A stretch of 64,000 nt of DNA from Chromatiales bacterium (GTDB lineage: Bacteria; Pseudomonadota; Gammaproteobacteria; JAGRCI01), in NCBI GenBank assembly GCA_020445565.1, contig JAGRGI010000081.1:4412-68411 (forward strand), written 5' to 3'. The first letter of the stretch is position 1. Each line of letters begins with the position of its first letter. Made by a program: the position numbers and the translations under genes. Below are positions 1 to 35,365 of this stretch, piece by piece. The notes under the pieces were generated by a model. The model was given only the letters and a program-made list of their open reading frames with translations, was not told the DNA's origin and made no database searches.

Positions 1-1538
1 AGACCATAGCCGCGAAAACGCCCGGCACCGACGAGCACAGGCCCCTGCACTTCCTGATCGAACAGCAACAGCGCATGAGTGTGATAGCGATAACCGCCAT
101 CGCTCTTGCGCCGCAGGGCCGGAAACTGACGCGCATGGGGAACGCCCTCGTGCATCGCGACACCATTGAGTATCACCTCGCGGGGTCTGGGCAGACCAAT
201 GCGCTCGCAGGCGTCTTTGATGTTTTCTGCCGCCAATTCCCATTGCGCCGCACCTTTGAAATGGCGATCGAGGACGATGGGCGTGACACTGGCCCAGAGC
301 TTTGACGGCTGCGTCCAGGTATCCGGGGTGAGGCTCTTGGGTGGGATCTCGGCGATTTGCAGAGCGATGTCGCACTCGAACCATCGACCGTTGTAAAGCT
401 TGTGCTCGCGCGGCAGCCCGGTTTGCGCATCGATCAAATAGTCTTCCAGACAATTGCCCGCCTCCGCCGGGTCCAAACCCTCCGGCAAGGCAATGGCCAA
501 GCCCATGATGCGTCCGTCGGCATGGGGAAACCCGCTGAACGACAGTGGTAACAGGGCCATGTGAGGCTGTTCCGAGGGCGCCCCGTCGGGACGATGACCG
601 CTGAACCATTCGGGCGGTGGCTGGCGTCGGCAATGGGCCATGAGACTACCCCTGAAAGACTCCAGCAGGCGCAAGGTAGAAGGCAGAGTGAATGCGCGGC
701 CACGTAGCGTAAACACCAGCAAATGCGGCTGAAAGACCGTCCCCGCCGGGGCCGGTAACAGATCGTCGGGCCGTCGGGTATAGCCGTGCCAGAGCCCGCT
801 CCTGGGACGCAGACTCACCGGCACGCGCTCGCCAAATCGTTCATCGATAATTTGCTTCATGCGTTTTTTCTCCTTACCGGATGATTGGTCCACCCTGGCC
901 CGCAGGCGTGCGTATTCCAGAACCTCGGCACGATTGACGTCTTCCGCGAGGGCTTGCAAACGCCCTGCGGTGGGAACCCGAAGCCGCAGCTTGGGTACGC
1001 CGTTTGTGGGCAGCCAGGTAGCCGGCACGCCCTCATCACTCACCCACATTTGCACCAAAGACGCAGAATGGCCGATATGCGTGACCTTCTCAGCCAGCCG
1101 TTCCAATCCCTCGCGGTGTTGCGCGAGATCGGCATCCCAAATGAGGTGCACGACAGGATCGTGGGGAATAGCGACGGGAAAGTGCCGTTCGTTACGCAAG
1201 CGGTGCTCCGGCAGAACGGCCAAGCCGGCATCCTTTAGCTTGTCCAGCGCATGGCTGCCCGGAACCTCGCGGGAGACGCCGGTATCGTTCACCGGCACGT
1301 AACTGGTAACGGTTTGTCGAAAGCCGGCTTCGGAGGCGGCAAGAGCAGGCGGTGAGAGCGTTTCCAGCCAACGCAGGGCATCGCCCTCGACCGGATCCTC
1401 TCCGGTCTCGAACCAGGCGGCCGCCATGGCCATGAAAACCCGATCCGGATGGAGCGGCCATTCGGCCTGCTCTTTTCTGGCACCATCCGCCGCCGCCATC
1501 GCCCACCCGTTGAGGTAGCGAATGGCGAGTGCGAACAT
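1..1538 (-). CDS. csb2: Type I-U/I-G CRISPR-associated Cas5/Cas6-fusion protein Csb2 (GSU0054 family), 3'-truncated by the window edge. The tracker lists no ORF here because the frame is open to position 1.
   Basis: My translation of the minus strand from the ATG at 1538..1536 gives an uninterrupted reading frame of more than 510 aa down to position 1. The N-terminus MFALAIRYLNGW...EWPLHPDRVFMAMAAAWFE matches the Csb2 N-terminal signature. A glycine-rich RAMP loop (GRFRGYG) is present. The start overlaps the csb1 stop in ATGA. Confidence 0.6.
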   Translation of the reverse strand, partial: MFALAIRYLNGWAMAAADGARKEQAEWPLHPDRVFMAMAAAWFETGEDPVEGDALRWLETLSPPALAASEAGFRQTVTSYVPVNDTGVSREVPGSHALDKLKDAGLAVLPEHRLRNERHFPVAIPHDPVVHLIWDADLAQHREGLERLAEKVTHIGHSASLVQMWVSDEGVPATWLPTNGVPKLRLRVPTAGRLQALAEDVNRAEVLEYARLRARVDQSSGKEKKRMKQIIDERFGERVPVSLRPRSGLWHGYTRRPDDLLPAPAGTVFQPHLLVFTLRGRAFTLPSTLRLLESFRGSLMAHCRRQPPPEWFSGHRPDGAPSEQPHMALLPLSFSGFPHADGRIMGLAIALPEGLDPAEAGNCLEDYLIDAQTGLPREHKLYNGRWFECDIALQIAEIPPKSLTPDTWTQPSKLWASVTPIVLDRHFKGAAQWELAAENIKDACERIGLPRPREVILNGVAMHEGVPHARQFPALRRKSDGGYRYHTHALLLFDQEVQGPVLVGAGRFRGYG

Positions 1539-2743
1539 CAGTCTTCCCCCGTACCCGACTCCGCTGCCAGAACCTGGCTCCGCCGCACCAACTCGACCAG
1601 TTCGTCACTGGGCGTGAGCAGGATCTCCCCTTCCCAAGGCAAACCCATGGCGCGAGCCGCCTCTGCTGCTTCGTTGAACAGCGCGACGGCCTGCCCGGCG
1701 TCAAGGGTGTAGTTGTGCACGGAACCAGGACGATCCAACAGATCCCATGTTGGCTCAGACTGTGCGAATAAATGGCAGCGGGAACGTAGATCCACGTCTT
1801 GCCTTGCCAGGGTACCGGCCAGCAGGGCAAGGGCGGCCAGCAGGGTATGCGCCGAGCTATCGACTTGTGGATCGGAAATCGTCGAATCGCCGAGGGGGAA
1901 ACGTAGGCGACGTACCGCGCTCAGGGATATGGTGGTGGTTTGTACTGCACGGCGAATCGTAAACCCGCCGGCCGATAGGGTTGGCGTGACGTTGCCGTGA
2001 TTGGCTTCCGAGGGCTTTCCCTTGCCATCCTTGCCCAGCTTCTTAGCCTTACCTTGCTGCTCCAACGTCCAATCCGGCTTGTCGGTCGACGGAACCGGAT
2101 TTTCGTAAACGGGGCCGGCCCCGAGCATGATCTGGGCAGGATCGATGCGGCTACCCGTCTTCACGCCGGGTACGGCGCGATAACCGACGATTTCGGAAAC
2201 GATGGCCCGCTGAAACTTGGCCCCCAGGCCACCGCGAGGGCCGGTGGAATCCCAGATTCCGAACACCAATGCGGTGGGACACAGGCCGAACAGGCCCGTC
2301 GCATTGCGAACATCAGCGTGGTCAAGCACCCTGCCCTTTTCCGATTTACGAAAGATGGTGCCCTCGAACAGGCTGTCACGGAACAAGGCATCGGCGACCC
2401 GATGAGGCGCCTCCAGACTGCTTACCTCGAACTTCTTCAAGAGCGCTTGCTGGTCGAATCGCGTCGTCATCAGCGGCAATTGGATTCGCCCGCGCCGATG
2501 GGAATCCAGCAACGCAAGTTCCATGCGATTGGCCTGGCTTTGTACGGAATCCAGCAGTACACAGGTTACGATCTCCCCGGTCGCCGGTTCCATGCGTTCT
2601 TCGGTCGCGTACTTGCCACCCTTGTAAGTGGGGGGAAAGATCTTGTCACCCTCCCCTCCCGCCGGCTGGTAATCCGTGGCGCATCGAAATGCGGCCGCGC
2701 CGCCTGCCACTGCGTTGCGCAGCGTATCAAAATCCAGATTCAT
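1538..2743 (-). CDS. csb1: Type I-U/I-G CRISPR-associated Cas7 (Csb1, GSU0053 family)
   Basis: 401-aa ORF with motifs KIFPPTYKGG and LLDSVQSQANRMELALL that I recall from the Cas7/Csb1 family. A GGAG Shine-Dalgarno sits 9-12 nt upstream of the ATG. The gene is followed by csb2 with an ATGA overlap. Confidence 0.65.
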   Translation of the reverse strand: MNLDFDTLRNAVAGGAAAFRCATDYQPAGGEGDKIFPPTYKGGKYATEERMEPATGEIVTCVLLDSVQSQANRMELALLDSHRRGRIQLPLMTTRFDQQALLKKFEVSSLEAPHRVADALFRDSLFEGTIFRKSEKGRVLDHADVRNATGLFGLCPTALVFGIWDSTGPRGGLGAKFQRAIVSEIVGYRAVPGVKTGSRIDPAQIMLGAGPVYENPVPSTDKPDWTLEQQGKAKKLGKDGKGKPSEANHGNVTPTLSAGGFTIRRAVQTTTISLSAVRRLRFPLGDSTISDPQVDSSAHTLLAALALLAGTLARQDVDLRSRCHLFAQSEPTWDLLDRPGSVHNYTLDAGQAVALFNEAAEAARAMGLPWEGEILLTPSDELVELVRRSQVLAAESGTGED

Positions 2744-17503: not shown

Positions 17504-18814
17504 TCAATGCGAAAAAATATCCCTGCGCCCGAATCGTATGAGCATGGCCCTGTAGCGTTTATACCGGGCGGCCTCGGTCTGTATCCACTCGTCCATACCC
17601 GCCGGATTCGTCGCTTTTTGTGCCCCATTGTTCGTCTGTCCGGTCGATCCGCCATCCCCGAAAAAATCGATTTGCCGCCGGAACAAGTCGACCCGATTGT
17701 TGCCAGTGATGGTGGCTTCCGCGGCCCGGACTAATTCGCCCGCCCTCGCCTCGTTGCCTTGGTCGATCTCCACTGCTGCCAAGTCCAGATACAAAAATGA
17801 TCGGAAGTCGGACGAAAGGCTGCACGAAGGATATTTTTCGGCGAGGAAGACTGCCTCGCTCAGCGATCCCGACGCCGCGTCCGCCCTTCCCTGCAGATGG
17901 TAAAGCTTCCCCAATTTTCGCCGGAACCGGACAACCTCCGAAATCTCATATGGTTCCGGCTTCCGCAGCTCTGCCTCCAAGACTTCGATCGCACCCTGAA
18001 TGTCCAAGGTGTTCAAGAGGCTCTCTATCAAGTTGTCCACAATCGAGCCCCTGGGAACCGCAAACGGGCCCGCTACCTGTTCCCGTATACGCAGGGCATG
18101 CCTAAGGGCAGTCTCGGCCATCTGGAGATCATGGAAGAGAACAAGGTATCCAAGCGACGCGAGCAGGTCGGATTCCAGGTTGGAATCACGTCCTAACCGT
18201 TGTTGTAGTGAGGTGATCGTAACCTCGATGCAAGGCTGCACTCGGGAGCCCCAGGATAACGTGCTCAGGAATTCGTCGAACCAGGCGACGGCATCGGGCA
18301 GGTCGGTGAGCGACAGCGAGTCGAACACGGATTCGATGTCTTTCAGATCCGCTCGCCACTCGCTATCGTCCGCAGGTGCACAGGGAGTATCCATCCAGGG
18401 GGTGTAGCCACCCCGCTCGGCACTGCATGCAATATGGTAGCGTTGCAGTACCAGATCCAGGCGGCGCGGATCATCGTGGGCAAGCACCGGCGAATTCCAG
18501 GCGCGCAGCAACAATTCCCTCGCTCGCATCCTCACCCAGTTGTCGCTCAACCGGTCTATATGCCAGCGCGCCGCGGCCACCGTCCGCTCCCATTGTTCCA
18601 TGGCGCTTGTGGCCTGCTCGATCTCCTTCTCGGACCAGTAATGCGCCTCGGGCAAGACAAAGCGATCCCACGGATGGACGCGCGCCTCGGTGCGAATGGC
18701 CAACATCGCCATCTGCCAATAGTGGGGATAGGCCTCCAACACGGCCGCTACCACGATGAGGACTGCAAATATAATGATGGAAATCCTGTTTTTCACCTTG
18801 ATCTCCCTGCTCAA
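17504..18814 (-). CDS. Membrane-anchored hypothetical protein (N-terminal TM, helical-repeat body) lying 70 bp downstream of the immunity gene
   Basis: 436-aa ORF with an N-terminal signal-anchor (IIIFAVLIVVAAVL) and no recognisable catalytic motif. Same strand as the toxin/immunity module. Confidence 0.5.
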   Translation of the reverse strand: MSREIKVKNRISIIIFAVLIVVAAVLEAYPHYWQMAMLAIRTEARVHPWDRFVLPEAHYWSEKEIEQATSAMEQWERTVAAARWHIDRLSDNWVRMRARELLLRAWNSPVLAHDDPRRLDLVLQRYHIACSAERGGYTPWMDTPCAPADDSEWRADLKDIESVFDSLSLTDLPDAVAWFDEFLSTLSWGSRVQPCIEVTITSLQQRLGRDSNLESDLLASLGYLVLFHDLQMAETALRHALRIREQVAGPFAVPRGSIVDNLIESLLNTLDIQGAIEVLEAELRKPEPYEISEVVRFRRKLGKLYHLQGRADAASGSLSEAVFLAEKYPSCSLSSDFRSFLYLDLAAVEIDQGNEARAGELVRAAEATITGNNRVDLFRRQIDFFGDGGSTGQTNNGAQKATNPAGMDEWIQTEAARYKRYRAMLIRFGRRDIFSH

Positions 18815-18884: not shown

Positions 18885-19889
18885 CTATCGAAAATGCCAG
18901 TTGGCGCCGATTTCGTCGGCATACAGACGATTCTCGGCGATCTCGCGCAGGTACAACGATTCCATCAGTTGGGCGAAATTGCGGTAGCGGCGGAAGCCGT
19001 CGTACATGCCCTTGCTCAGCCACGCCTCCCACTCGCCGTGCTCATCCACCACCGCCGGGTTGAGCATCACGATGCCGCGCACGTCGCTGAACTCGCCGCA
19101 GATCACCAGGGCGCCGGGGATGTACTCGCGGCGCATGTCGGTGAGCGGGTCCTGGCTGGCGCTGTAGTTGAAGTAGCGCTCGTCCGGGACCGGGTCGTCG
19201 GGAACGAATTCACCAGCCATGTCCACCATCCACTCCTGGTACTCGGTGTTGCGCAAATAGTCGATGCGGTCGACCCAGGTTAGGTAGATGTCGCCCAGTA
19301 CCCAGCCGTTGGTCAGGCGCAGGAATTCCTTATACGACGGCGGCAGGGTCGCACCCAGGCGTTGCTCGGCGGCGCGGATCTGCTCATCGGTGGCCGGCGG
19401 GCGGCCGGAGGAGCTGTTGCGGATGATGTCGCCCCAGGAGAAGATGTCGACCAGGGTGTCGGGGCGTCGGCGTTTCATTGAGGCGAAATCTTCTCGGTAG
19501 AATTGCGTGAGCAACTCCGCAGCTTGCATGGCTAGGCGCCGGCCCTCCGGCGTGTTTCCGGGATACGGTATGCGGCCCCGATGAAGTTCTCGCGGCAAAT
19601 GCACGCCCGTTCGCTCTTCATATGCCGCGAGCTCCTCGTCCAGCGGGGTCACCATCTTGCCCTCCCAGAGCAAAATGGCGCGGGTAATCTCCAATAGTTC
19701 AAAGTCCCAGTCTTCAAGGAACTTCTTCCAACCTACTCTGGCAATGGAAACCGGTTCCGGGAGGTAAGCGGTCGCCTTCTGCATCCAGATGCGTCGGGCA
19801 GTGGGGTCTTCGGGGTTCATACAGGCCACCAGAGTAAATGTAAAGAATATGACGCGAAGCAATCGGAGTCGACAGATTGGCGTCGACAT
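18885..19889 (-). CDS. SUKH-1 (SMI1/KNR4) family immunity-like lipoprotein
   Basis: Internal ATG at 19889, 14 nt after the toxin stop, with lipoprotein signal MSTPICRLRLLRVIFFTFTLVAC (lipobox LVAC). C-terminal SUKH motifs ATDEQIRAAEQRLGATLPPSYKEFLRLTNGW and ...ALVICGEFSD. The tracker's longer ORF overlaps the upstream toxin gene in another frame. Confidence 0.65.
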   Translation of the reverse strand: MSTPICRLRLLRVIFFTFTLVACMNPEDPTARRIWMQKATAYLPEPVSIARVGWKKFLEDWDFELLEITRAILLWEGKMVTPLDEELAAYEERTGVHLPRELHRGRIPYPGNTPEGRRLAMQAAELLTQFYREDFASMKRRRPDTLVDIFSWGDIIRNSSSGRPPATDEQIRAAEQRLGATLPPSYKEFLRLTNGWVLGDIYLTWVDRIDYLRNTEYQEWMVDMAGEFVPDDPVPDERYFNYSASQDPLTDMRREYIPGALVICGEFSDVRGIVMLNPAVVDEHGEWEAWLSKGMYDGFRRYRNFAQLMESLYLREIAENRLYADEIGANWHFR

Positions 19890-19902
19890 GCCGGCCCCGT
19901 AC

Positions 19903-22900
19903 CTAACGCCTCCCATAGCAGACCTCCCCGCCGGGCAGTGCACCGTGGGTAACGGAACCCTCGGACAAATCCGTGCGAACCTCGTAGGGGTCGTTTGCAG
20001 AGATTCGACATTTGGCATAGAACTGCCGGAGGGTCCCGCCCTGGGCTTGGTTTTGACGGCGGGGCACCAGTCGCAGCGATACTCCGTCGGTGATGCCGAC
20101 CCCAGCCCCTTGGCGGGTGGAATAGAATGGATACTCGTCGCAATCGGGCTCGACATCATTCTTGTCCTTAAACTGGTCCCGATTGTTCCTGCTACACACA
20201 ATCTCCTTCCGATACCAAGTCCGATCCCCACCTGAGTCGTCCCCGTTGTCGACATTGGCCGTGATGGTCCCGATCGATGAGGTATAACCAAGGAACTCCA
20301 GCGTGCTGGGCGACCCACCGGCTTGGGCGTCCTGGACATGTGAGGTGATCTCGGTCATCGGCGTCAAACGGGTAGATTGTGAGGCCGACACGTAGACCTT
20401 GCAGTCGCCTTCGTCTGCCATGGCGGTGGCGGTACTCGCGGCGCCGAGGGGCAAGCTCCAGCGCCCGAGCTCGCGCAGAATCGGTAAAAAGAAACGGGCA
20501 AGGACGGCCAACGCGGGGGCAAGTGCGCCTCCCGCGGCACCTCCAGACGCCACTATTATGGCAAGAAGCACAATGGCGGCGATGATGGCCCACCACGGTA
20601 TCCGCACCCCGACCCGTTCTCCGTCTCCCGAATCGATAGAACAGGACGGCTGTTGCCCAAATGAAGGCGGTACCTCGAGCGGTCGCACAAAGCCGACGAA
20701 ATTGCCCATTCCCACGAGTGCCAACGACTTGTCCAATTCGCTCTGTGCGGCTCCGCCGTTGCTCCCGCCGCGAATGCGGTAGGCGCCCGCCCCGGTCTGC
20801 GGATCGATGAGCAAATAACCCTCGCCACGCCAGTCACCCGATTGGATCTGACCGGCACTCACCAGGGCCTGATGGCCGTTGGCGACGTGGAAACGCAGAT
20901 CCTCCCGTGTCTCGGGCGACAACGACAGCGTTGGGAGCACGCTTTCCAGGTTGTTTTCGGTCAGAGAGTGCAGGCGCTGCCCCTGCCGTTGGGCCAGGGC
21001 TAGGGCACTTACGGCGGAGACGCTGGTGGCAGGGTAGTCGGCGTTACCGATATATGCGACGGGTACCTCGTATTCCAGGGCCGACCCGATGGAGCCCAGG
21101 ATCTCGCGCAAGCGGGGCTCGTCCAAGTCGCCGCCGGCAAGCGGCACGACGGTTTCGCCCAGGTAGTCGATATCCACCGCCACACCACCCAAGTTCACGT
21201 TGCGCGGTGCGCCCAGAACGATCTCGGCATCCAGTTCGGTCGAGAAGGTGCCAAAAGACGGGTGGCGGTAGGTGACGCCCAGCCCCATCAAGGACAGGGT
21301 CTCCAGCGCTGCGTCCACATTCGCGAACCAGCTGCGGGCCATGCTGGGGAAAACGTTCTCTGGATCGTTGTACACGCTGTCGGTCAATTCCTGCGCGGGG
21401 ATGGAGCCGGGATTCACGGCGAGATACAGCCACTCGCCGGCATCGGGCTGGTTGACGGCCACTGCCTGGCCGCCGCCGAGTCGGTCGATGGTGGTCACGC
21501 TTACCAGAGCCTGGCCCAGGGTGTAGGGACCGGCACTGGCGACGACCTGGCTGTCTAGCCGCAGCTCGGCGATCAGCCGAATGCGGTGGCCGGGCAGGCG
21601 GCGGGGCAGATCTCGGAAGGTGGCCGTGGAATCGCTGGGATCGGGCAGTTGTTCCTCAATGAGCCGGCGATCGGCATCGCTCGCGGGGCGATAGCGCAAT
21701 TGCAACTGTCGCCCAACCAGTTCCGGGAGAGCGATCCGGTGGTACAGCTGGGGGATCTCGTGGGTGCGCTCGGCCTCGTTTCGATACAGGGCGAAGGAAA
21801 AGGCGATGCGGGCGCTGTCCGGCAGTTCAGAGGCCACGGCAAGGTCTTGATGGCCGGAGCCCATGAGGCCGGATGGGAGGACGGGAAAGTCCATACGTGC
21901 GATGGCGCGGCCTCGCCAGGATTGCTCCTCGTCGAAAACGGCGTCCGCGAGGGAGTCCTCCCAACGGGGTAGGAGACTGGCGAAGTCCACCTGTTCCAAA
22001 CCTTCAATGGCCCCGTCAGCCGGATTGATACTCAAACCGGACAACGCCGTGCGTATCTCCTCGCGCACGGACTCAACCGCCGGATTCTGGAGGTCTGGTG
22101 CGGCAGAGTACTCGTATCGCTTCAGGCTGGCGTCAAGCGGCAGCCAAGTGTCCCCCTCCCTTTGAACGGCGCCTCGTGAGGGAAAGTAGTCGATCCACGC
22201 CTCCACCCAGACATGTTCGAGACGGATGGCGACGATCCGCCCGCCACTCGCCAAACCGGAGGCCGGGATGCCGCCTTGGCCGAGCACAGCCAAAACCTGC
22301 TCAGGGCGTTCGACCCCACCTAGCCAGTTCATGGCCAGATCCACCGGCAGATCGATGGTGCCGAATCGGTAGCGGGCCTGGATGCCAGCGACCCGGTACA
22401 AAGCAACCAGCAGACTGCTGATGTCGAAGGCGTTGCCTTGGCCCGTCTGGAGCGTGTAGTCGGCACCCTGGATGGAACCCCAGGTGGGCACATAGTCGAT
22501 CTGGTTGCGTACCCAGTTGTAGATCGCCACTGGCTGGTTGCCGAGTTGCTCGGCAAGTTGACGTATGGCCGGAGTAAAACGCACCTCGGTGCTCTCCCCG
22601 AGATAGTCCTCACCGCCAATCGCCTGTTTTTCAGGTGCGGAAGTCGGTGGCAACATCGCATTCCGGTACACCTTCAGTTCGGTAGCCGAGTTGGCCGGTT
22701 TTCGTGCTTCGGGGACGATCTGACCGAAGGCAAGCGGCGGCTTACCCGCCATGGGGATAGCGGGAATCGGGACCTCGGCCTGAGCCACCGATTTCTCATT
22801 CGCGGCATGCACCGGGCCGAGGAGTGCGCAGTTGAATATCTCCAGGGTCAGCAGAGCGACGAACTTGAAAAACCGGCGGTTCGGATTCAACCAGGCCACG

Positions 22901-22977
22901 CATCGCCAAGCCGATGTCCGTTCGGTGTCTACGGCTGCGGCGTGGGTGGCTCGATGACGATAGGTCGACGTATTCAT
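19903..22977 (-). CDS. Polymorphic-toxin-like secreted protein: signal peptide, transglutaminase-like domain lacking the catalytic Cys, long central region, one TM helix, and a C-terminal NucA/NucB-type DNase domain
   Basis: Transglutaminase-like core GQGNAFDISSLLVALYRVAGIQARYRFG...EHVWVEAWIDY...WLPLDAS, with no Cys in the catalytic motif. TM helix WWAIIAAIVLLAIIVASGG. C-terminal DCDEYPFYSTRQGAGV...LRLVPRRQNQAQGG resembles the NucB motifs DRDEWPMA..GGAG..VRYVTPSDNRGAGS. The ATG overlaps the stop of the upstream giant gene (ATGA). Confidence 0.65.
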   Translation of the reverse strand: MNTSTYRHRATHAAAVDTERTSAWRCVAWLNPNRRFFKFVALLTLEIFNCALLGPVHAANEKSVAQAEVPIPAIPMAGKPPLAFGQIVPEARKPANSATELKVYRNAMLPPTSAPEKQAIGGEDYLGESTEVRFTPAIRQLAEQLGNQPVAIYNWVRNQIDYVPTWGSIQGADYTLQTGQGNAFDISSLLVALYRVAGIQARYRFGTIDLPVDLAMNWLGGVERPEQVLAVLGQGGIPASGLASGGRIVAIRLEHVWVEAWIDYFPSRGAVQREGDTWLPLDASLKRYEYSAAPDLQNPAVESVREEIRTALSGLSINPADGAIEGLEQVDFASLLPRWEDSLADAVFDEEQSWRGRAIARMDFPVLPSGLMGSGHQDLAVASELPDSARIAFSFALYRNEAERTHEIPQLYHRIALPELVGRQLQLRYRPASDADRRLIEEQLPDPSDSTATFRDLPRRLPGHRIRLIAELRLDSQVVASAGPYTLGQALVSVTTIDRLGGGQAVAVNQPDAGEWLYLAVNPGSIPAQELTDSVYNDPENVFPSMARSWFANVDAALETLSLMGLGVTYRHPSFGTFSTELDAEIVLGAPRNVNLGGVAVDIDYLGETVVPLAGGDLDEPRLREILGSIGSALEYEVPVAYIGNADYPATSVSAVSALALAQRQGQRLHSLTENNLESVLPTLSLSPETREDLRFHVANGHQALVSAGQIQSGDWRGEGYLLIDPQTGAGAYRIRGGSNGGAAQSELDKSLALVGMGNFVGFVRPLEVPPSFGQQPSCSIDSGDGERVGVRIPWWAIIAAIVLLAIIVASGGAAGGALAPALAVLARFFLPILRELGRWSLPLGAASTATAMADEGDCKVYVSASQSTRLTPMTEITSHVQDAQAGGSPSTLEFLGYTSSIGTITANVDNGDDSGGDRTWYRKEIVCSRNNRDQFKDKNDVEPDCDEYPFYSTRQGAGVGITDGVSLRLVPRRQNQAQGGTLRQFYAKCRISANDPYEVRTDLSEGSVTHGALPGGEVCYGRR

Positions 22978-25900
22978 CGACGGGGGCCTCCTTGCGGATG
23001 GGTAACGGTTCGGTGTCGCAGGCCGATCCAGACGGTCATCAGGATCAGCAACGCCAGGTTGGCGGAGTTCAACAGCGGCACGGCGAGAGGTTCGACTATG
23101 CCTTGGGGCAGGACAACCTGGAAATAGGCATAGGACAGGGTCTGCCAGTCTTCGTCGGCCTTGCGCAGACGACGCGGGTCCGGTGCGGGGCGTGCTTGCA
23201 GCAGACAGGCGTAGTTGCCGGGGGGCAGTTCGGCGGTGTCGATGGCTTCCTGGTGTTCTGGGGCGTCGCCGTTGAGGGTGTCCAGGTTGCGGATTCGATC
23301 GAGCACTACCTCGCCGGTCTCCAGGTTGACGAGCCGCTGACGGATTTCCAGGTTGGTCAGGGTTCCGCCGAGAGTGCTGAGTCGATCCATGCAGGCGTTC
23401 GCCTCGCCGCGGACGACCTGGGGCTTTTCGGTCTCGATCAGGCCGTTCAGGCTGCGATTGAAGGCTTGGGCGACGGTAAAGCCGGCCTCGTCGGTGGCAA
23501 GCAGGCCGAACCGGATATCCACGGCCTGGGCATGAACCTGGTAGGCGCCGGGTTCGGCTCCCGAAAGGGGTAGCGTCAGGCCATGTGGGGTTTGTTGGCC
23601 TGGGGCGAGTTGGCCAATGGGAATGCCTTGCCGCAGGATATCCGTACCCCGGGGATCGACTACCTGGACCTGCAAGGTAATGTCGGAAAACAGTGCGTCC
23701 GTACTGAGATTTCGCAACAGGTTGTCGATACGCACCAGGTCGTTGGCGTTGTACTCGGCCCGGTCGGTGGTGGTGCGCAGACTGGCTTGCCGGTCGGCGA
23801 GCAGGGTCGAGACGATTTGGAAGGGGGCGAGGTCTTCGTCGATCGGTTCGCCACGGTCGTCATACAGCAGACCGTGCAGTTGGTAGTCTCCGGTCAGGAT
23901 GCCGTTGGCGGGCCAGTCGACGCCGATGGGATGGCTGGTCCCCACGCTAAGATTTTCCAGATCCACGTCGTCGAAGCGGGTCACGACTTGGCCGTTGCTG
24001 TCTTCCACTTGCAGTACGGCGGTAAAGGTTCCGCTAAGTGCGCCGGTATTTAAGATGAGGGCACTGAGGTGAGCGGTGGCGTCCGAGGTGTAAGTCGGGG
24101 CATCGGTGGCGACGGTGAGGCTCCCGACCGTGGCGAGCGTCGCCAGGGGGATGGCCATTTGGTTGTTGACCTCGTTGCATTCGTCGATGGCATTGGCGGC
24201 ATCGACGACGACGTAGAGCTCGTTCTGGTTGAACAGTTCTACGGCATCGAGCGAAAGGTCACGATATTCGCCCACCGCCAGGGGCGCGACGATTTGGTCG
24301 CCGAGCAGGATTCCGCCGACGGCCGGATCGCCTTGATAAAAGGTCAGGCGGGCCTCGCCGGTGGGGGTAAGGCCGCCGTTGCCCACGCGTACCGTCAGAC
24401 GGGGACGCGCTTGCGAGGTCTGATCGAAGCGCAACAGGGATACGCTCAGATCCGGCAGGGCCAGTGGATCGCGGCCGGGGAAGGCGTTGAGGCGATAGGT
24501 ATTGTGGACCAGCCAGGAGGGTTGTTCGTGCGTCGGGATGGTGCCGTCGTCGTTGATGTTGGTGATGTGGTAGCTGTGCTGGTTCCAGATGGCGCGGGTG
24601 GGTGCCCAGTCGTCGTTGGCGGACTCGAAGGCATAGACGCCGGAGTCCACCGCCGGGTTGCCGTTGAAGATTCGTGCATCGGAACAGACCAGCAGTTCGG
24701 CATGGCCATCATTGTCGATGTCGGCGACGACCGGCATCTCCGTGCCGGTTCCAGAGAGCACGGGTCGAGCGTGCAGCACCTGACCATCGCTACCACGGTA
24801 GATACGCAGGAACCGCTCGTCGCGATACACGACTTCTGCGGCTCCGTCCCCGTCGAAGTCGAATGACGTCGAGCCAGTAACGGTAGAACTGTAGTCCTGT
24901 GTCGGCGACGACCAAAGAATGGAGCCGTCGGTGTCGAATACTGTGTAGCTGCTGGCCCCCGCGACAGCGATCTCTGGCCTGCCGTCACCATCAAAATCCG
25001 CAATGGTTGGCGCACCGCCATATCCCCCCCCGGAAGCACAACCCTGCCGCTGATTGCATGCCAAAGGCTCGCACTTGATCCGTCGTGCTCCAACAAATAT
25101 ACGTAGCCACCGCCAACGACCACAATTTCGGCAAAATCATCCTCGTCGAAATTGCCGACTGCGACGAAACCTTCCGGGACACCACTCCCCTCCAACACCA
25201 ATCCGTGACGGTCGTATGAATACACACTGCTCCCGGCAACGATTTCCGGGACGCCATCGAGATCGACATCCGCCACAGCAGAAACAACGGTATACAGGTT
25301 GAATCCCGAGTGACCTCCGAGGGCTCTGCCATCGGCGAGAACGTGTCCCTGGGCATCGTAAACGACCGCACCGACCACGATTTCCGGGACGCCATCGGCG
25401 TCCAGGTCGGCAATGACAATCGATCCGCCGGAGTCAGAGCGACCGGGCAAAGTCAGCTCGTCGCTCGCCCATTTGAATGTCAGGTCATTCTCGAAGGCGA
25501 GAAGCTGTTTGCCATTTTGGGAAGCGCCGATCACTTCCGGCACGCCATCGCCATCGATGTCGCCAATGGCAAGTTCGGTGATTGCCCCAACCAATTGATT
25601 GGGTGGGCTGGTGTACAGGGTTCTCCCGTCGTCTCCGCTTATCGCATAGATCTGACCGCCGTTGAATTGTCCATTTGGTACGGTGGGAAACACAATGTCG
25701 GGGACATCGCGAACACCGATGTGCCCATCGCCGTTGTCGTCGGTAAGATTTGCGACTAGGGGCGTGGAGATGACATCAATCCGCTCGTTCTCAAGGGCAT
25801 GAAATTTTACGACCGGATCGAATGTTCCAGGCGGCGATACTGGCAACCGGCACAGAGCAGACGAACTACCGACGTTATTCCCCTCCTCCGCCTCATCGAT

Positions 25901-28900
25901 CCGCAAGTCGCTGTCGACCATGGCAAAGATGGGCGCATCACGGAAACGGGTCGTGCCGTTGACGAGGATGTCGATGGTCAGCGACGCGCCACCGGCCAAC
26001 CCATTCGGCAGGGTTCGGGCGGCCAGGGCATTATCGGTGCCGGGATCGTATCGGCCGTTGCCGTTGAGGTCTTCGAACAGGCTGACACGCGCCGGCAGTT
26101 CGGCCGCGGCCAGGGCGAGGTTTTCCACACGGACTTGGACGATACCGCTGATGTCAAGCGTGCGTGGATCGCTTTGCAGGCCTGCGGTATCGATGGCGGA
26201 AACCGTCAAGTCTGGTTTGGGGCGGTAGGAGCCGATGGAGACATGAACGGTGTCATTATCCACGCAACCCCGGTCGTCGATCACAAACAGGGTGACGTCC
26301 CGTTCCTGCGCGGAGGTGAACCGGTGCTGCGCGCTCGCCCCGGTGATGTCGATCTCGTTGTCGCCGTCCAAGTCCCAGGCGTAGGTGACGATGTTGCCCT
26401 GGGAGGCGCTAGCGTTGAATTGGATAGCGGTTTGCGCATCGGCAACGATATCCTGCCCTGCGTCAGCGGTTGGCTTTTCTGCGCAACGCATTCCGCCAAC
26501 GGCGTCAATTTCAGCATCGGCGGACTGCCAACCTTCGAGCGGACTATGGTCGTCTACGTCGCTCCAACTGGTACGGTCTTGGGTGTCAAAAATCGAGATG
26601 GAATTATCCGCCTTCAGGCGAACATACCGATACCCCGTGCCACGAAAGGCGTACAGTCCGGCGTAGTCATCGATGTTTGCCGTTTCGCCGCATAGGGCAC
26701 GATTGTCCGACCAGCCTTGAACGTAAATGCTGACCAAAGTCGCCTGCGTCCAACCGTCCGGGAAAATCGATTCCGGATCGTCAGATCCCCAAATGGTGTA
26801 CTCAACACCTTCCTGCGGATAGGGGGCATGATCTACGAAGGGAAATACCGTAACGGCAAAGAATCGCTCACCCATATCCCAGATAACGTCGTTGTCGTCG
26901 GATGTCGATTCGAGCGGATCAAAAGGATCATAGCCAGCGGCCATGGACCGAAAATCAAGACCGTTCGCTGCATACGCAATATCCTGCAAACTATTCTCCC
27001 TGATGGTGTCAAAAGCAAAACCGCACCCCATTGGCGATTGAGCTGTCCAGGTATGAGGGCGTCCTCCCGAAACATGGCGTCCCAGGATATAGTTGTCCGG
27101 CACCAACGCATCGCGCGTCAGACCATGGAGTGTCTGCACGTCCGTGACGACATAGGTCGTCGCACTGTTCTGCAGAACCTCAACGGTAATACTTTCCTGC
27201 GCAATTCCTCCGTAGGCGTCGACCACAGTCACAGCGAAGTCATGGTTACCCACCTGCGCCAAGGTCGGCAGCCAACGAATCTGCCCGGTGTTGGAATCGA
27301 TCTGCATCCCTGCCGGGGCCTCGGCCAAACCGAAACGCAACGCGTCGCCCTCCGGGTCGCTGGCGGCTACGGTATTTAGGTAGGTCTCCCCCACCCGAGC
27401 CTGAGTCGGGGCGGCGGACAGAATCGTCGGCGGTTGATTCGAGGACAGCGGGGCGAAGGCAGCCATGGCCAGGTCCGTCAGGTCGACGACACTCCCCGCC
27501 GGGGCTTGCACGGACAGCGAAACCGGGTGGTAGCCGTTCAGGTTGAACGTAAAATCGAGGTCGCCGGAGGTGATCCCGCCGATCTCGAAGGTGCCGGCGG
27601 CGTCGGATAGGGCGGATGGCCGACCGTCGATGCTGACGGTGACATCCGCCAGGGGGAACCGCGTAACGCTATCGACGACACTGCCGTACACCCGAACCGC
27701 GTCCGCAACCTGCTCAAGACGGGGCGCGAATACCAACACCTCGCCCGCCGCCAGGGTGGCATGACCGGAGGCACTGTGATAACCGTTTCGTTCGGCGACG
27801 ATGTCGATGCTGCCGGTGGACAGGTTGTCGAATGTGAAGCGGCCGTGGGAGTCGGTGAGCACACGGGTTCGGCCGACGATACGGATGTCCACATTGGGCA
27901 AGGGTGCCCCCGAGTGACTGTCGGTGACGGTTCCATACACCCGGGCGGTGGTGACGTCGTGCGTCGGCGTGAGCCGCAGCTCGCCCAGATCGAGCACCTG
28001 TCCGGCGAGCAGGTCCACGGCGGTGGACAGCAGGCCATAGCCGACCCGCTGTACCGTGAGCCGATATTGACCCTCATCGAGGTTCGAAACGACGAACCCG
28101 CCATCGGGATCCGTACCAAGACCCAGATTCTGCGGCCCGGTCAGTTGGAGAGATACCCCGGCCAGGGGCTGGCCAGTAGAGCCGTCGCTCACCTGGCCCC
28201 GCAGCATTCCCTGTTGTGGGTCGATTGCGGGCGAGGCCACATCGGCCAGCGCTCGCAGTGCCAGGGCGGTCTGGTACGCGTCACCGTTCCAACTGCCGTC
28301 GACGTTCTGGGCGGCGCGCAAGCGTTCGATAGCGGGTTCCAACGTTGTCCGATCCGACAAATGGACGGCGAGGAAGAGCAGTGCCAAAGCGGTTTCGTGG
28401 GTCTCGGCCCAGACACCTTGGGCGTTGCGTCGGGCCAGCAGGAAGCCCTCGGCGGCTTGCAGAGCGCTGCGAAGTTCGTAAAGCGGACGGAACCACCACA
28501 AGATACGTGCCACCAGGGCGGTAACGTATATCGAGGAGGCATTGCCGCTTTCGCCCCAGCCCCCATCATCGCGCTGGACGTTCTGTAGATAACCGACGGC
28601 ATAGGCCGCCGCCTCGGTGTGCGTATAGCCGGCTGCGGCCAGACTCTCCAAAGCAAAGGCGGTATCCAGGACGCTGCTGTAGTAGCCGACCGCAAAGCCG
28701 AAACCGCCGTCGACATTTTGGCGACTCAGCAGTTGTGAAACCCACTCAGAAGAGTCCAGGCCGGTTTCCGCGAGCGCAATAATCTGGCGGGACAGGTATT
28801 CAGTGCTCAAGGCATCGGTATCGGCGCCGAGCAGAAAATCGCGGGCTGCCATGCTGGCAGGATCCGCGCCCGACTCCAGCAGCACCAGGGCACGCAGGGA

Positions 28901-29110
28901 CTCTGCCGTAGACTGAGTGGCGGTGGCGACATCGTCGGTCGTTGTGAGACTGCCATCGGGCGAGGAACGGCTGCCCAACCAGGCGATGCCCTCCGCAGTA
29001 CCTGCCCATCCAGGCATCACAGGCAAGCAAACCAATAGACAAAAAAGCAGGGACGCAATCGCGGACGGTTTTCGGCATGGCGGCCGAATCCATGAGTTAC
29101 GGGGTTCCAT
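22974..29110 (-). pseudogene. Giant secreted multidomain surface/adhesin-like protein (~2,040 aa if fused), split into two overlapping ORFs (24446..29542 and 22974..25064) by a frameshift at a homopolymeric G tract
   Basis: N-terminal signal peptide. Prenyltransferase/terpenoid-cyclase-like repeats (QNVDGGFGF, QRDDGGWGE, QNVDGSWNG). Three carboxypeptidase-regulatory-like domains. A cadherin-like 'putative Ig' domain, a PKD domain and two CARDB domains. At least 10 FG-GAP/VCBS repeats (DxDGDGxxE) spanning the frameshift. A C-terminal hydrophobic helix plus basic tail. Likely ATG starts at 29110 or 29125 (after MEPRNSW.../signal); the tracker's 1698-aa ORF begins further upstream at 29542. Confidence 0.6.
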
Positions 29111-29407
29111 AGAGCAGGATTCCATTCGGTTGAAACGACTAATGTCGCGAAGTACACCGCTTTCCCCGTCTGCGGTCAAGACCATTGCGTGTACGAAAAT
29201 TCTTACAAACTCAACATCTTGGGAGAGATAATCTTCGATAGTCAAAACACTGGCGACACAGACGAGGCAGTGCAATTCAAGGAGAATGCCGCCTTGAACG
29301 CGGTGCTTCTTGGCAGGCAATCGAGGTTTGCGTAACGGTGAGATTTTGACTGAAACCCCGGGCCTGCGTTGGCCATGTTGATGTGAGGCCAAGGGCCTGC
29401 ATTGACT

Positions 29408-29471
29408 TCGGCGCACATCCGGGCTTTCACCTCCCTGTGGCTGGATTCCGCCGCTCCCTGGCGGAATGACG
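29408..29471. repeat. Conserved ~64-nt element, copy 2 (hairpin ATTCCGCC-N7-GGCGGAAT with SD and ATG on the minus strand). It lies ~290-360 bp upstream of the giant surface-protein gene and ~110 bp upstream of divergent hupE.
   Basis: About 58 of 64 nt are identical to 2985..3048. The stem is conserved while the loop differs, which is a compensatory pattern. On the minus strand, GGGAGGTGA then an ATG open a 58-codon ORF that is not conserved beyond MCAE. Confidence 0.6.
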
Positions 29472-29583
29472 GTACCGCCGACCATCGTCTGCATAGGAAG
29501 TGCCGCCCCCCACCAGCCTTGCCGCATTGCGGGAATGGGCATAGGATTGCCGAACTAAACTCAGCATCTCCGGAGGAAATGCC

Positions 29584-30171
29584 ATGCGTCAGCGCCCGCA
29601 CGCCTACCTCGGTCTGTTTGTCCTGTTAGCACTGCTACCCCTGGCAGCGGTGGCCCATGAACAGGGGGCGATCGGGGCCAATGCGTTTCTTACCGGCTTC
29701 ATGCACCCCTTGGGCGGCTTGGACCACATGCTGGCGATGTTAGCCGTGGGTATGTGGGGCGCGCAGTTGGGCATGCCGGCCCTGTGGTTGCTTCCAGTAG
29801 CCTTTCCGCTGCTGATGGCGGTAGGTGGCGTTATGGGCATGGTCGGCTTTCCATTGCCGACGGTCGAACTGGGCATCGCCCTGTCTGTGCTGGCACTGGG
29901 CGGGGTCATCGCCCTCAATTTTCGCGCTCCGTTATGGGCCAGCCTGCTGATCGTCAGTTTTTTTGCCGTGTTCCACGGTTACGCCCACGGCATGGAACTG
30001 CCCGCGCAGACCAACCCGCTTTCCTATAGTCTGGGCTTCGTGGTCGCCACCGGCCTGATTCACCTTGCCGGCATCGGCATCGGCATGGTTACCCACCTGC
30101 CGCGTGGCATGACGCTGCTGCGTGCCGGCGGCGGCGCCATTGCGGCGGCGGGGGCATTCCTGCTGGTATGA
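29584..30171 (+). CDS. hupE: HupE/UreJ family metal (Ni/Co) transporter accessory protein
   Basis: Signal peptide, AHEQGAIGANAFLTGFMHPLGGLDHMLAML (the HupE/UreJ His motif) and 6 TMs. Confidence 0.75.
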   Translation: MRQRPHAYLGLFVLLALLPLAAVAHEQGAIGANAFLTGFMHPLGGLDHMLAMLAVGMWGAQLGMPALWLLPVAFPLLMAVGGVMGMVGFPLPTVELGIALSVLALGGVIALNFRAPLWASLLIVSFFAVFHGYAHGMELPAQTNPLSYSLGFVVATGLIHLAGIGIGMVTHLPRGMTLLRAGGGAIAAAGAFLLV

Positions 30172-30773
30172 GAACCCTGCTGGCGCTGGGGCTGACGCTG
30201 ATCGCCAACCCGGCCTTTGCCCATATAGGTATCGCCGCCAATGATTTGTACGCCGGGATGCTACACCCGGCGATTCACTTCACCACCCTAATGCCGCTGC
30301 TGGCCCTGGCCTTGTGGCTTGCCCAGCAACCGGCCGATACCTTGCGCCTGTCCGTTCCGGCCTTTTTGCTCACAGCGCTCGCGGGCGCCGTGCTCGCGCT
30401 GTTCCTTCCTCATCTGCCCGACGCCTCGGTGGCCTATCTGCCATTGACCCTCGTTCTCGGGGTGATGGTCATCGCCGCATGGCGCGGGCCGGCCTGGTTG
30501 GTCATCGGCCTGGCTGCCGCGACCGGGTGGGCCGAGGGCTATGGCAATCTGTCCACGGTACGGGGCGAATTGGCCGACCCGATGCTTTTCACTGTGGGCC
30601 TGCTGCTCACTTTGGGGCTGATACCGCTTCATCTGGTCGGCCTGCTGTATCAACGTGAACAACTCTGGATACGCACGGGTGCCAGAGTCGCGGGCAGTTG
30701 GATCACGACGGCGGGTTTTCTGGTTCTGGCCCTGCAGTGGACCGGCCACGATTTGAGCACCATCGCGCCATGA
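30168..30773 (+). CDS. HupE/UreJ-like paralogous membrane protein
   Basis: Same architecture with a related N-terminal motif AHIGIAANDLYAGMLHPAIH. ATGA overlap with the preceding gene. Confidence 0.55.
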   Translation: MRTLLALGLTLIANPAFAHIGIAANDLYAGMLHPAIHFTTLMPLLALALWLAQQPADTLRLSVPAFLLTALAGAVLALFLPHLPDASVAYLPLTLVLGVMVIAAWRGPAWLVIGLAAATGWAEGYGNLSTVRGELADPMLFTVGLLLTLGLIPLHLVGLLYQREQLWIRTGARVAGSWITTAGFLVLALQWTGHDLSTIAP

Positions 30774-34708: not shown

Positions 34709-35365
34709 CTAATGCCGCATTCGGCCTCCTCCGCCGGACTCTCCCCCCACCATTTCCAGGATGGCCTTCAGCAATTCGGCCCGTTCGTTGGGCAAAACGG
34801 TTTCGATCAGCGACTGCTTCTGCTTGTTGTCCAGTGGCAAATTGGCGATCAGGGCATTGACCAGCAAGTGGTCGTCGGCTTTCTCGAAGCCATCCCAGGA
34901 AACCTCGGCACCCACCGATTCCGCATAGGCTCTCAGCGCGTCGGTCAACCCGGTTCGATCAATCTCGTTTTCTGCCGGATCCTGGTAATCGCCGTTGAAT
35001 CGGGTCCAATCCGCACGCACGCGCCGGTAACCTCGGGCAAGCGGCAATTCGTCAACCACGTCGAAACGGCACAGGCCGGTGAGAACCAGAATGATCCGGC
35101 CGTCATCGGTCTCACTGAATGAACTGATCCGGCCTGCACAGCCCGTTTTGCTCAGGACTCGTTCATCCTCGTCCAGTGGTTGAATCATGCCGATCAGTCG
35201 CCGGGCGCCCAGGGCGTCCTCCACCATATTAAGGTAGCGGGGTTCGAAGACATTCAGCGGCAACTGCGTACCCGGCATGAGAACGGCGCCCGACAGGGGG
35301 AATACGGCGATGTCGGCCGGCAACCGATCAAACGGCAGCGTAAATGGGTTTCTATGCATCAACAC
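34709..35365 (-). CDS. LON N-terminal (substrate-binding) domain protein
   Basis: FPLSGAVLMPGTQLPLNVFEPRYLNMV is a LON N-domain signature; 218 aa. Confidence 0.75.
   Translation of the reverse strand: MLMHRNPFTLPFDRLPADIAVFPLSGAVLMPGTQLPLNVFEPRYLNMVEDALGARRLIGMIQPLDEDERVLSKTGCAGRISSFSETDDGRIILVLTGLCRFDVVDELPLARGYRRVRADWTRFNGDYQDPAENEIDRTGLTDALRAYAESVGAEVSWDGFEKADDHLLVNALIANLPLDNKQKQSLIETVLPNERAELLKAILEMVGGESGGGGRMRH

Follow-up and report, generated by a model that had tools for sequence, protein, structure and literature searches.

Within the 64-kb stretch of DNA analyzed here (the window), which belongs to a metagenome-assembled genome (MAG) of an uncultured Chromatiales bacterium, a minus-strand gene for a giant surface protein is broken into two reading frames at a homopolymeric tract of eight G (G8), and the addition of one G joins the two parts into a single gene. 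In all four sequences of this organism in which the tract was seen, the gene is out of frame, and two OFF lengths occur (G8 and G7). The most probable explanation is that a tract of nine G (G9) really contracted by one base and that this inactivated the gene, leaving either a pseudogene of recent origin or an OFF allele that became fixed, at a site prone to slippage. We do not take the view that the tract is an evolved switch.

The giant gene and its reading frames

An earlier note on this DNA had described the ORFs 24446..29542 (minus strand, frame A) and 22974..25064 (minus strand, frame B) as overlapping by about 600 nt in different frames, and the measured overlap is 619 nt. The features of the gene are listed below.

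25032..29110, minus strand: upstream part of the giant gene, 1,359 codons in frame A (based on Pfam, start and blade count, and homologue alignment)
25024..25031, minus strand: homopolymeric G8 tract, site of the frame change; equal to CCG GGG GGG GGA (Pro-Gly-Gly-Gly) minus one G
24446..25023, minus strand: out-of-frame tail, 190 frame-A codons; read in frame B, this segment codes for the next FG-GAP blades
22974..25023, minus strand: downstream part of the giant gene, about 680 codons and the stop codon in frame B (based on frames, Pfam and MAG annotation)

The probable start is at position 29110, where the sequence MEPRNSW... is followed by a hydrophobic, signal-peptide-like stretch and where the alignments of homologues begin. 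The domains identified with Pfam in the upstream part are a prenyltransferase/SQHop-cyclase-like domain, three CarboxypepD_reg domains, He_PIG/Big_9, PKD and the first five FG-GAP-like blades. The downstream part contains three more FG-GAP blades, CARDB, an MG2-like domain and a C-terminal hydrophobic anchor followed by basic residues. The break therefore falls inside a beta-propeller, with five D-x-D-x-D-G-x-x-E blades before the junction and three after it, in agreement with the earlier observation that FG-GAP repeats are encoded on both sides of the frameshift. In the annotation of the source MAG, the downstream fragment is a 618-aa hypothetical protein (MCB1876442.1) and the upstream ORF is unannotated. 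The MAG contig is 83 kb long and carries locus tags of the form KDH88_107xx.

When the G run was re-measured, it was found to be exactly 8 nt long, at 25024..25031 of the coding (minus) strand (8 C on the plus strand); the presence of a G tract at the frameshift had been correctly recognized, while a length of 9 nt and a start at 25023 had to be abandoned. The minus-strand text at the tract is ...GTT GTG CTT CCG GGG GGG GAT ATG GCG..., which in frame A gives RVVLPGG before the junction and DMAV after it. The meaningful text of frame A ends with ...LWHAISGRVVLPGG and is followed by 190 nonsense codons and by a stop codon at 24446..24448, and from the tract on frame B reads ...GGGYGGAPTIADFDGDGRPEIAVAG.... 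A second G run, previously reported as 5-6 nt long at about 24956..24961, does exist and measures 5 G at 24956..24960. It was considered as a co-factor of the frameshift and rejected, since it is in frame (frame B) and plays no part.

The ORFs were re-read in a series of tract lengths built in silico (G6, G7, G8 and G9). With G9, a single ORF of 2,189 codons was obtained from the first ATG at 29542, corresponding to 2,045 aa when counted from the probable start at 29110, so that the prediction of a single ORF of about 2,040 aa after addition of one G held. G6 is in frame too (2,044 aa). A stop codon is encountered 12 codons past the tract with G7 and 190 codons past the tract with G8. With one G added, the junction becomes P-G-G-G-Y-G-G-A-P-T-I-A-D-F-D, in the sequence PGGGYGGAPTIADFD. 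In the MAG copy this is the only lesion, and the gene is otherwise intact over 6.1 kb, with no further degenerative changes. Such integrity is compatible with a young pseudogene and with a reversible OFF state alike.

The tract is the longest homopolymer and the sole run of at least 8 nt in the window, the next longest being of 7 nt. Dinucleotide-preserving shuffles gave an expectation of 5.67 ± 2.89 such runs, as compared to the one observed, and homopolymers are in fact depleted in the window. G8 per se is therefore no excess over chance; the part that is not due to chance is that the frame switches exactly within a conserved family motif.

Homologues and the family motif

The full-length homologues are each encoded by a single ORF (about 1,160-3,400 aa), with identities of at most 46% in the protein-cluster search and at most 52% with tblastn. 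Identity is 39-52% over most of the length, and the domain order is shared with the window copy. These proteins derive mostly from uncultured Gammaproteobacteria, for example Sulfuricaulis, Thiohalomonadaceae, Sedimenticolaceae, Thiodiazotropha and Thiohalobacter, while some belong to other phyla; with regard to closer relatives, scans of genome and metagenome contigs gave only homologues of at most 52% identity. The closest homologues have a C-terminal extension of about 500 aa, whereas the window copy is devoid of it and ends in the membrane anchor. Known relatives with FG-GAP, CARDB and CarboxypepD_reg domains are annotated only as 'carboxypeptidase regulatory-like domain-containing protein', and a literature search on the giant FG-GAP/CARDB family found nothing.

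The tblastn matches continue across the junction. The motif P-G-G-G-x-G-G-[AP]-P-T-[IV]-[AG]-D-[FM]-D occurs, in frame, 58 times in the 57 homologous loci that were fetched, and each time the ORF stays open on either side for 150 codons or more, or up to the contig end. The stretch PGGGYGGAPT is identical in three loci (L004, L006 and L033). The window copy is disrupted where the homologues are in frame, as is typical of a frameshifted pseudogene. For the glycines of the motif the homologues use GGC, GGT or GGA, and their longest G run there has 6 nt, which indicates that the long tract is peculiar to the lineage of the window. The absence of a long G tract at the motif in 57 of 57 loci is nevertheless a weak test at the species level, all of these loci being distant (at most 52% identity). 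Since the repaired junction matches the family motif, the simplest ancestral spelling would be CCG GGG GGG GGA (9 G), from which one G was lost.

Downstream toxin and immunity genes

The giant gene is followed on the same strand by the following features.

22974..22993, minus strand: junction between giant gene and toxin gene; the TGA stop overlaps the toxin ATG (ATGA, 22974..22977), with a Shine-Dalgarno sequence AAGGAGG at 22987..22993
19903..22977, minus strand: secreted transglutaminase-core protein of 1,024 aa, MCB1876441.1 (based on Pfam and MAG annotation)
18885..19916, minus strand: SMI1/KNR4 (SUKH) protein of 343 aa, the next gene after the toxin (based on Pfam)

The 1,024-aa protein carries a C-terminal DNase_NucA_NucB domain (residues 918-1000), an architecture that resembles that of polymorphic toxins. 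The SUKH protein is presumed to be the immunity partner of the DNase domain. A predicted C-terminal toxin domain accompanied by an immunity gene of the cognate type is the arrangement expected of a polymorphic toxin-immunity module. A Transglut_core gene coding for about 1,000 aa also adjoins the homologue of the giant gene in a Sedimenticolaceae MAG (L007) and in a Manganitrophaceae MAG (L011), indicating that the pairing of giant gene and transglutaminase is conserved. The window copy shares both domain order and pairing with the known giant FG-GAP/CARDB/CarboxypepD_reg proteins that accompany transglutaminase-core proteins. Its transglutaminase partner differs from those of the known pairs in having the additional NucA/NucB DNase domain, with the SUKH immunity gene next to it.

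It had been proposed that phase variation of the surface protein would also switch the translationally coupled toxin on or off. The ATGA stop/start overlap is real, but the dependence was overstated, because the toxin has its own strong ribosome-binding site (AAGGAGG, 9 nt upstream of the ATG), and a strict dependence of the toxin on translational coupling is not supported. With the frameshift, translation ends 1.47 kb ahead of the toxin start, and no sigma-70-like promoter match was found between the tract and the toxin start. A polar effect on the toxin gene is possible.

Tract length in other sequencing runs

Sequences of the same organism were obtained by exact-protein look-ups that led to Logan assemblies of other runs, so that the tract lengths given here are those of assembled contigs. 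A contig of 4,292 nt from SRR23924744, corresponding to window positions 27045..22754, and one of 1,366 nt from SRR23924727 are both 100% identical to the window and have G8 (loci L163 and L165). A third contig, of 7,264 nt, from SRR23924734 (L166) corresponds to window positions 29451..22184 and has G7. The inspection of independent assemblies across 24950..25070, suggested in the earlier note as a check for tract-length differences, thus gave G8 twice and G7 once. Counting the window, the disrupted state is the consensus of the same-organism data, with G8 in three sequences and G7 in one.

The G7 contig also contains an A-to-G change at 25383, which replaces Glu with Gly in the conserved DGxPE blade motif (DGVPEIV to DGVPGIV), and an in-frame deletion of 3 nt at 24409..24411 (one codon). 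Beyond G7 there are therefore two protein-altering changes and no synonymous one in 6.5 kb, numbers that are too few to gauge relaxed selection. The clustering of three changes in this contig is likewise a matter of small numbers.

An in-frame allele (G9 or G6) was found in none of the data searched. No junction-spanning protein of the same species was present among 5.8 billion protein clusters, searched in three bands of hit length (about 115-364, 630-1,216 and 1,159-3,394 aa), a search in which the positive control (P0124, the cluster of the C-terminal fragment) was recovered. Upstream fragments and partial proteins at contig edges are absent from this protein-cluster collection. Through neighbouring genes the organism was recognized in at least 15 further runs or assemblies, none of whose contigs reaches the tract. 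MEGAHIT (k141) metagenome assemblies that contain it include ERZ27309353, ERZ27309373, ERZ27309375 and ERZ27309391, and the WANG18-1 samples SAMN08389250, SAMN08389256 and SAMN08389257.

Origin of the frameshift

The earlier note had offered three readings of the split gene, namely a homopolymer sequencing error, true pseudogenisation and phase variation. An assembly error is unlikely, since two Logan assemblies of other runs repeat G8 with flanks 100% identical to the window. The other part of the error reading is a systematic artefact, in which the organism truly has G9 and an intact gene, the run being called too short in the MAG and in the Logan contigs alike. The break does sit at the longest homopolymer of the window, and the G7/G8 scatter between runs has the pattern of noisy homopolymer calling. 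Nanopore data typically under-call homopolymer runs. Two runs that hold the same organism, SRR17907852 and SRR17907851, are described as Oxford Nanopore runs (PMC11042533), and their Logan contigs differ from the window only by contractions from C6 to C5 at 34743 and from C5 to C4 at 18398, and by one SNP. These two runs, however, do not cover the tract and hence say nothing direct about it. Moreover, G8 was found in three separately built sequences, and eight other contigs from SRR239247xx runs match the window over about 26 kb with zero differences, homopolymers of 7 nt included. The window is tiled by about 60 other ORFs (coding density 91%), no other frameshift was found among the window genes checked, and the same-strand ORF overlaps that were checked turned out to be separate, complete genes; indels are therefore not widespread in the assembly. 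One of these overlaps, between ORFs 18885..20339 and 19903..22977, had been a candidate second frameshift and was rejected, being due to the upstream ORF extension of the 343-aa SUKH gene. Because of the homopolymer contractions in the nanopore-listed runs, we still assign a small probability to the systematic under-calling of a true G9.

A reversible slipped-strand switch, ON with G9 or G6 and OFF with G7 or G8, would account for the same alleles if the sampled populations happened to be OFF, and appears rather unlikely. The poly-G/C contingency loci of Campylobacter, Neisseria and Haemophilus resemble the present gene in having an intragenic G tract of at least 7 nt in a surface-protein gene, a length that is polymorphic between close populations and a tract that derives from consecutive glycine codons. 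In contrast to those loci, no ON allele was seen here, the tract is not conserved in homologues, the host is a free-living or wastewater-type Chromatiales bacterium, and no repertoire of such tracts was observed. Phase variation driven by simple sequence repeats (SSR) is documented mostly in host-adapted pathogens. The G8 tract within the ORF exceeds the cut-off of at least 7 G/C by which PhasomeIt defines a putative phase-variable gene, and the event in which 'three consecutive glycines become 9Gs' has been described as one route to phase-variable loci (PMC6321876). The product is a secreted or surface protein, the remainder of the ORF is intact, and the repeat number does vary between populations (G8 in SRR23924744 and SRR23924727, G7 in SRR23924734, as read from assembled contigs). 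However, the lengths seen include OFF states only, in four of four sequences and at two different lengths, and the protein-database searches yielded no ON allele. The repeat is missing from all 57 homologous loci (longest G run 6), which are distant at no more than 52% identity, and two further changes in the G7 haplotype alter the protein, with none that is silent. A single tract of at least 8 nt in 64 kb gives no sign of a repeat-rich repertoire of contingency genes. What stands of the phase-variation reading is the difference in tract length; against it are the out-of-frame state of every allele and the absence of the tract from homologues. That the tract is a working contingency switch (G9/G8/G7) of a giant adhesin-like protein in a free-living, wastewater-type relative of sulfur-oxidisers is improbable. 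Far less credible is programmed recoding, in which a -1 ribosomal frameshift on G_GGG_GGG or RNA-polymerase slippage would restore the full protein from G8. As at the frame junctions of dnaX, IS3-family transposases and phage tail chaperone G/GT, a formal X_XXY_YYZ heptamer is present in the zero frame (CC-G GGG GGG, frame A), and a -1 slip yields exactly the PGGGYGG motif. Unlike in those systems, the 124-nt segment downstream is no more stably folded than shuffled sequences (z = -0.13), with only a 5-bp hairpin 3 nt past the tract and thus no stimulatory structure. The shift is not conserved either, since all homologues are single-frame and a frameshift is needed in 0 of 57 loci, and there is no sensible pair of products because the split lies inside the beta-propeller. 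Furthermore, a -1 slip cannot rescue the G7 allele, and the known efficient bacterial slippery sites and transcriptional slippage tracts are A/T-rich.

Of the three readings offered, true pseudogenisation fits best. We favor a real contraction of G9 that inactivated the gene. The G9 tract would have arisen because this lineage used the codons CCG-GGG-GGG-GGA for a conserved Pro-Gly-Gly-Gly that opens an FG-GAP blade, and slipped-strand mispairing during replication may then have removed one G. In the resulting G8 allele, ribosomes would leave the correct frame after ...VVLPGG, add 190 wrong codons and terminate at 24446. The predicted product would accordingly retain five of the eight propeller blades and lack CARDB, MG2 and the C-terminal anchor. 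From this truncation we infer that the protein has almost certainly lost its function. G8 predominates in at least three data sets and a further contracted G7 exists, which points to a recent loss-of-function allele, and the single lesion of the MAG copy also suggests that the event is recent.

The gene resembles other pseudogenes frameshifted in a homopolymer tract in having one single-base indel in the run, an otherwise intact ORF and intact homologues elsewhere, and also in that the annotation left only a C-terminal fragment as a 'hypothetical protein'. It differs from them in that the MAG copy has one lesion so far and in that the tract is long enough to make reversion mechanistically possible. 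The inactivation of a large surface-protein gene by a single-base homopolymer indel is a well-known type of event, and on present evidence the case described here is an ordinary inactivating slippage mutation of a known kind.

The immediate consequence is a correction of the gene model, as MCB1876442.1 and the unannotated upstream ORF belong together as parts of a single surface-protein gene of about 2,045 aa. The locus also shows, as a clean example from nature, how a conserved Gly-Gly-Gly written in GGG codons in a GC-rich genome becomes a mutational weak point. Should reads turn out to contain both 8 G and 9 G, the locus would be one of the rare instances in which a homopolymer switch is documented in an environmental bacterium. 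Were the tract truly a switch, its lengths may, through polarity, also modulate the downstream transglutaminase-DNase toxin, and SSR phase variation would be extended to an environmental bacterium and linked to a polymorphic-toxin operon.

Sequence variation around the giant gene

The genes of the window referred to in this and the following section are listed here.

Features of the window beside the giant gene
1538..2743, minus strand: ORF strongly matching Cas_GSU0053 (PF09617, E = 1e-52)
17504..18814, minus strand: 430-aa hypothetical gene, following the SUKH gene
29584..30773, plus strand: tandem pair of HupE/UreJ-family genes, of 195 and 201 aa
34709..35365, minus strand: LON_substr_bdg-domain gene, with a C6/C5 difference near its 3' end

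Positions 29423..29451, which lie in the giant gene's 5' untranslated/promoter region, are a recurrent break in the assembly graph. Four Logan contigs, each from a different run (L171, L172, L176 and L178), start exactly at 29423, and the Logan contig carrying the G7 allele (L166) ends at 29451. The break is adjoined by a perfect 8-bp inverted repeat, ATTCCGCC-N7-GGCGGAAT, and is crossed by MEGAHIT contigs from ENA. It may be the mark of a strain-level structural variant or of a repeat. A further irregularity was observed in the ENA contig L174 (WANG18-1, SAMN08389256), whose nucleotides 1..124 do not align to the window, the remainder matching 28550..30414 at 99.9%. This end may stem from chimeric assembly of the contig, or from structural variation within the giant gene's 5' part.

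Homopolymers shorter than in the window were also seen in other runs. In the Logan assembly of SRR17907851 (L168), a C5 tract is contracted to C4 at 18398, in the hypothetical gene 17504..18814, and this gene is called there in two parts, of 150 and 222 aa. Either a nanopore-type error accounts for this contraction, or the same gene cluster has a second natural frameshift polymorphism. At 34743..34748 the window has C6 vs. C5 in the SRR17907852 contig (L171), a difference that alters the last residues of the LON_substr_bdg-domain product; either length may be the correct one.

Other features of the window

In the tandem HupE/UreJ-family pair, stop and start codons overlap; the pair and the giant gene are divergently transcribed. 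The Cas_GSU0053 match makes a CRISPR-Cas locus probable, either at the window's left edge or beyond it. The ORF block 52422..57459, which shows a markedly lower third-position GC than is found elsewhere (0.47-0.55 vs. 0.65-0.80), may be a horizontally acquired island; its 646-aa ORF (53212..55152) gave no NCBIfam match.

Pairing of the giant protein with a transglutaminase-core protein

In three MAGs, a giant FG-GAP/CARDB/CarboxypepD_reg protein and a transglutaminase-core protein of about 1,000 aa occur as a pair.

Giant protein/transglutaminase-core pairs
window 19903..29110: Chromatiales MAG
L007 6182..16659: Sedimenticolaceae MAG
L011 2617..13591: Manganitrophaceae MAG

Among these pairs, only the window copy has the NucA/NucB DNase tail and the SUKH immunity gene. 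The pairing appears to represent a conserved two-gene module, on which a search of one full-text paper library found no paper.
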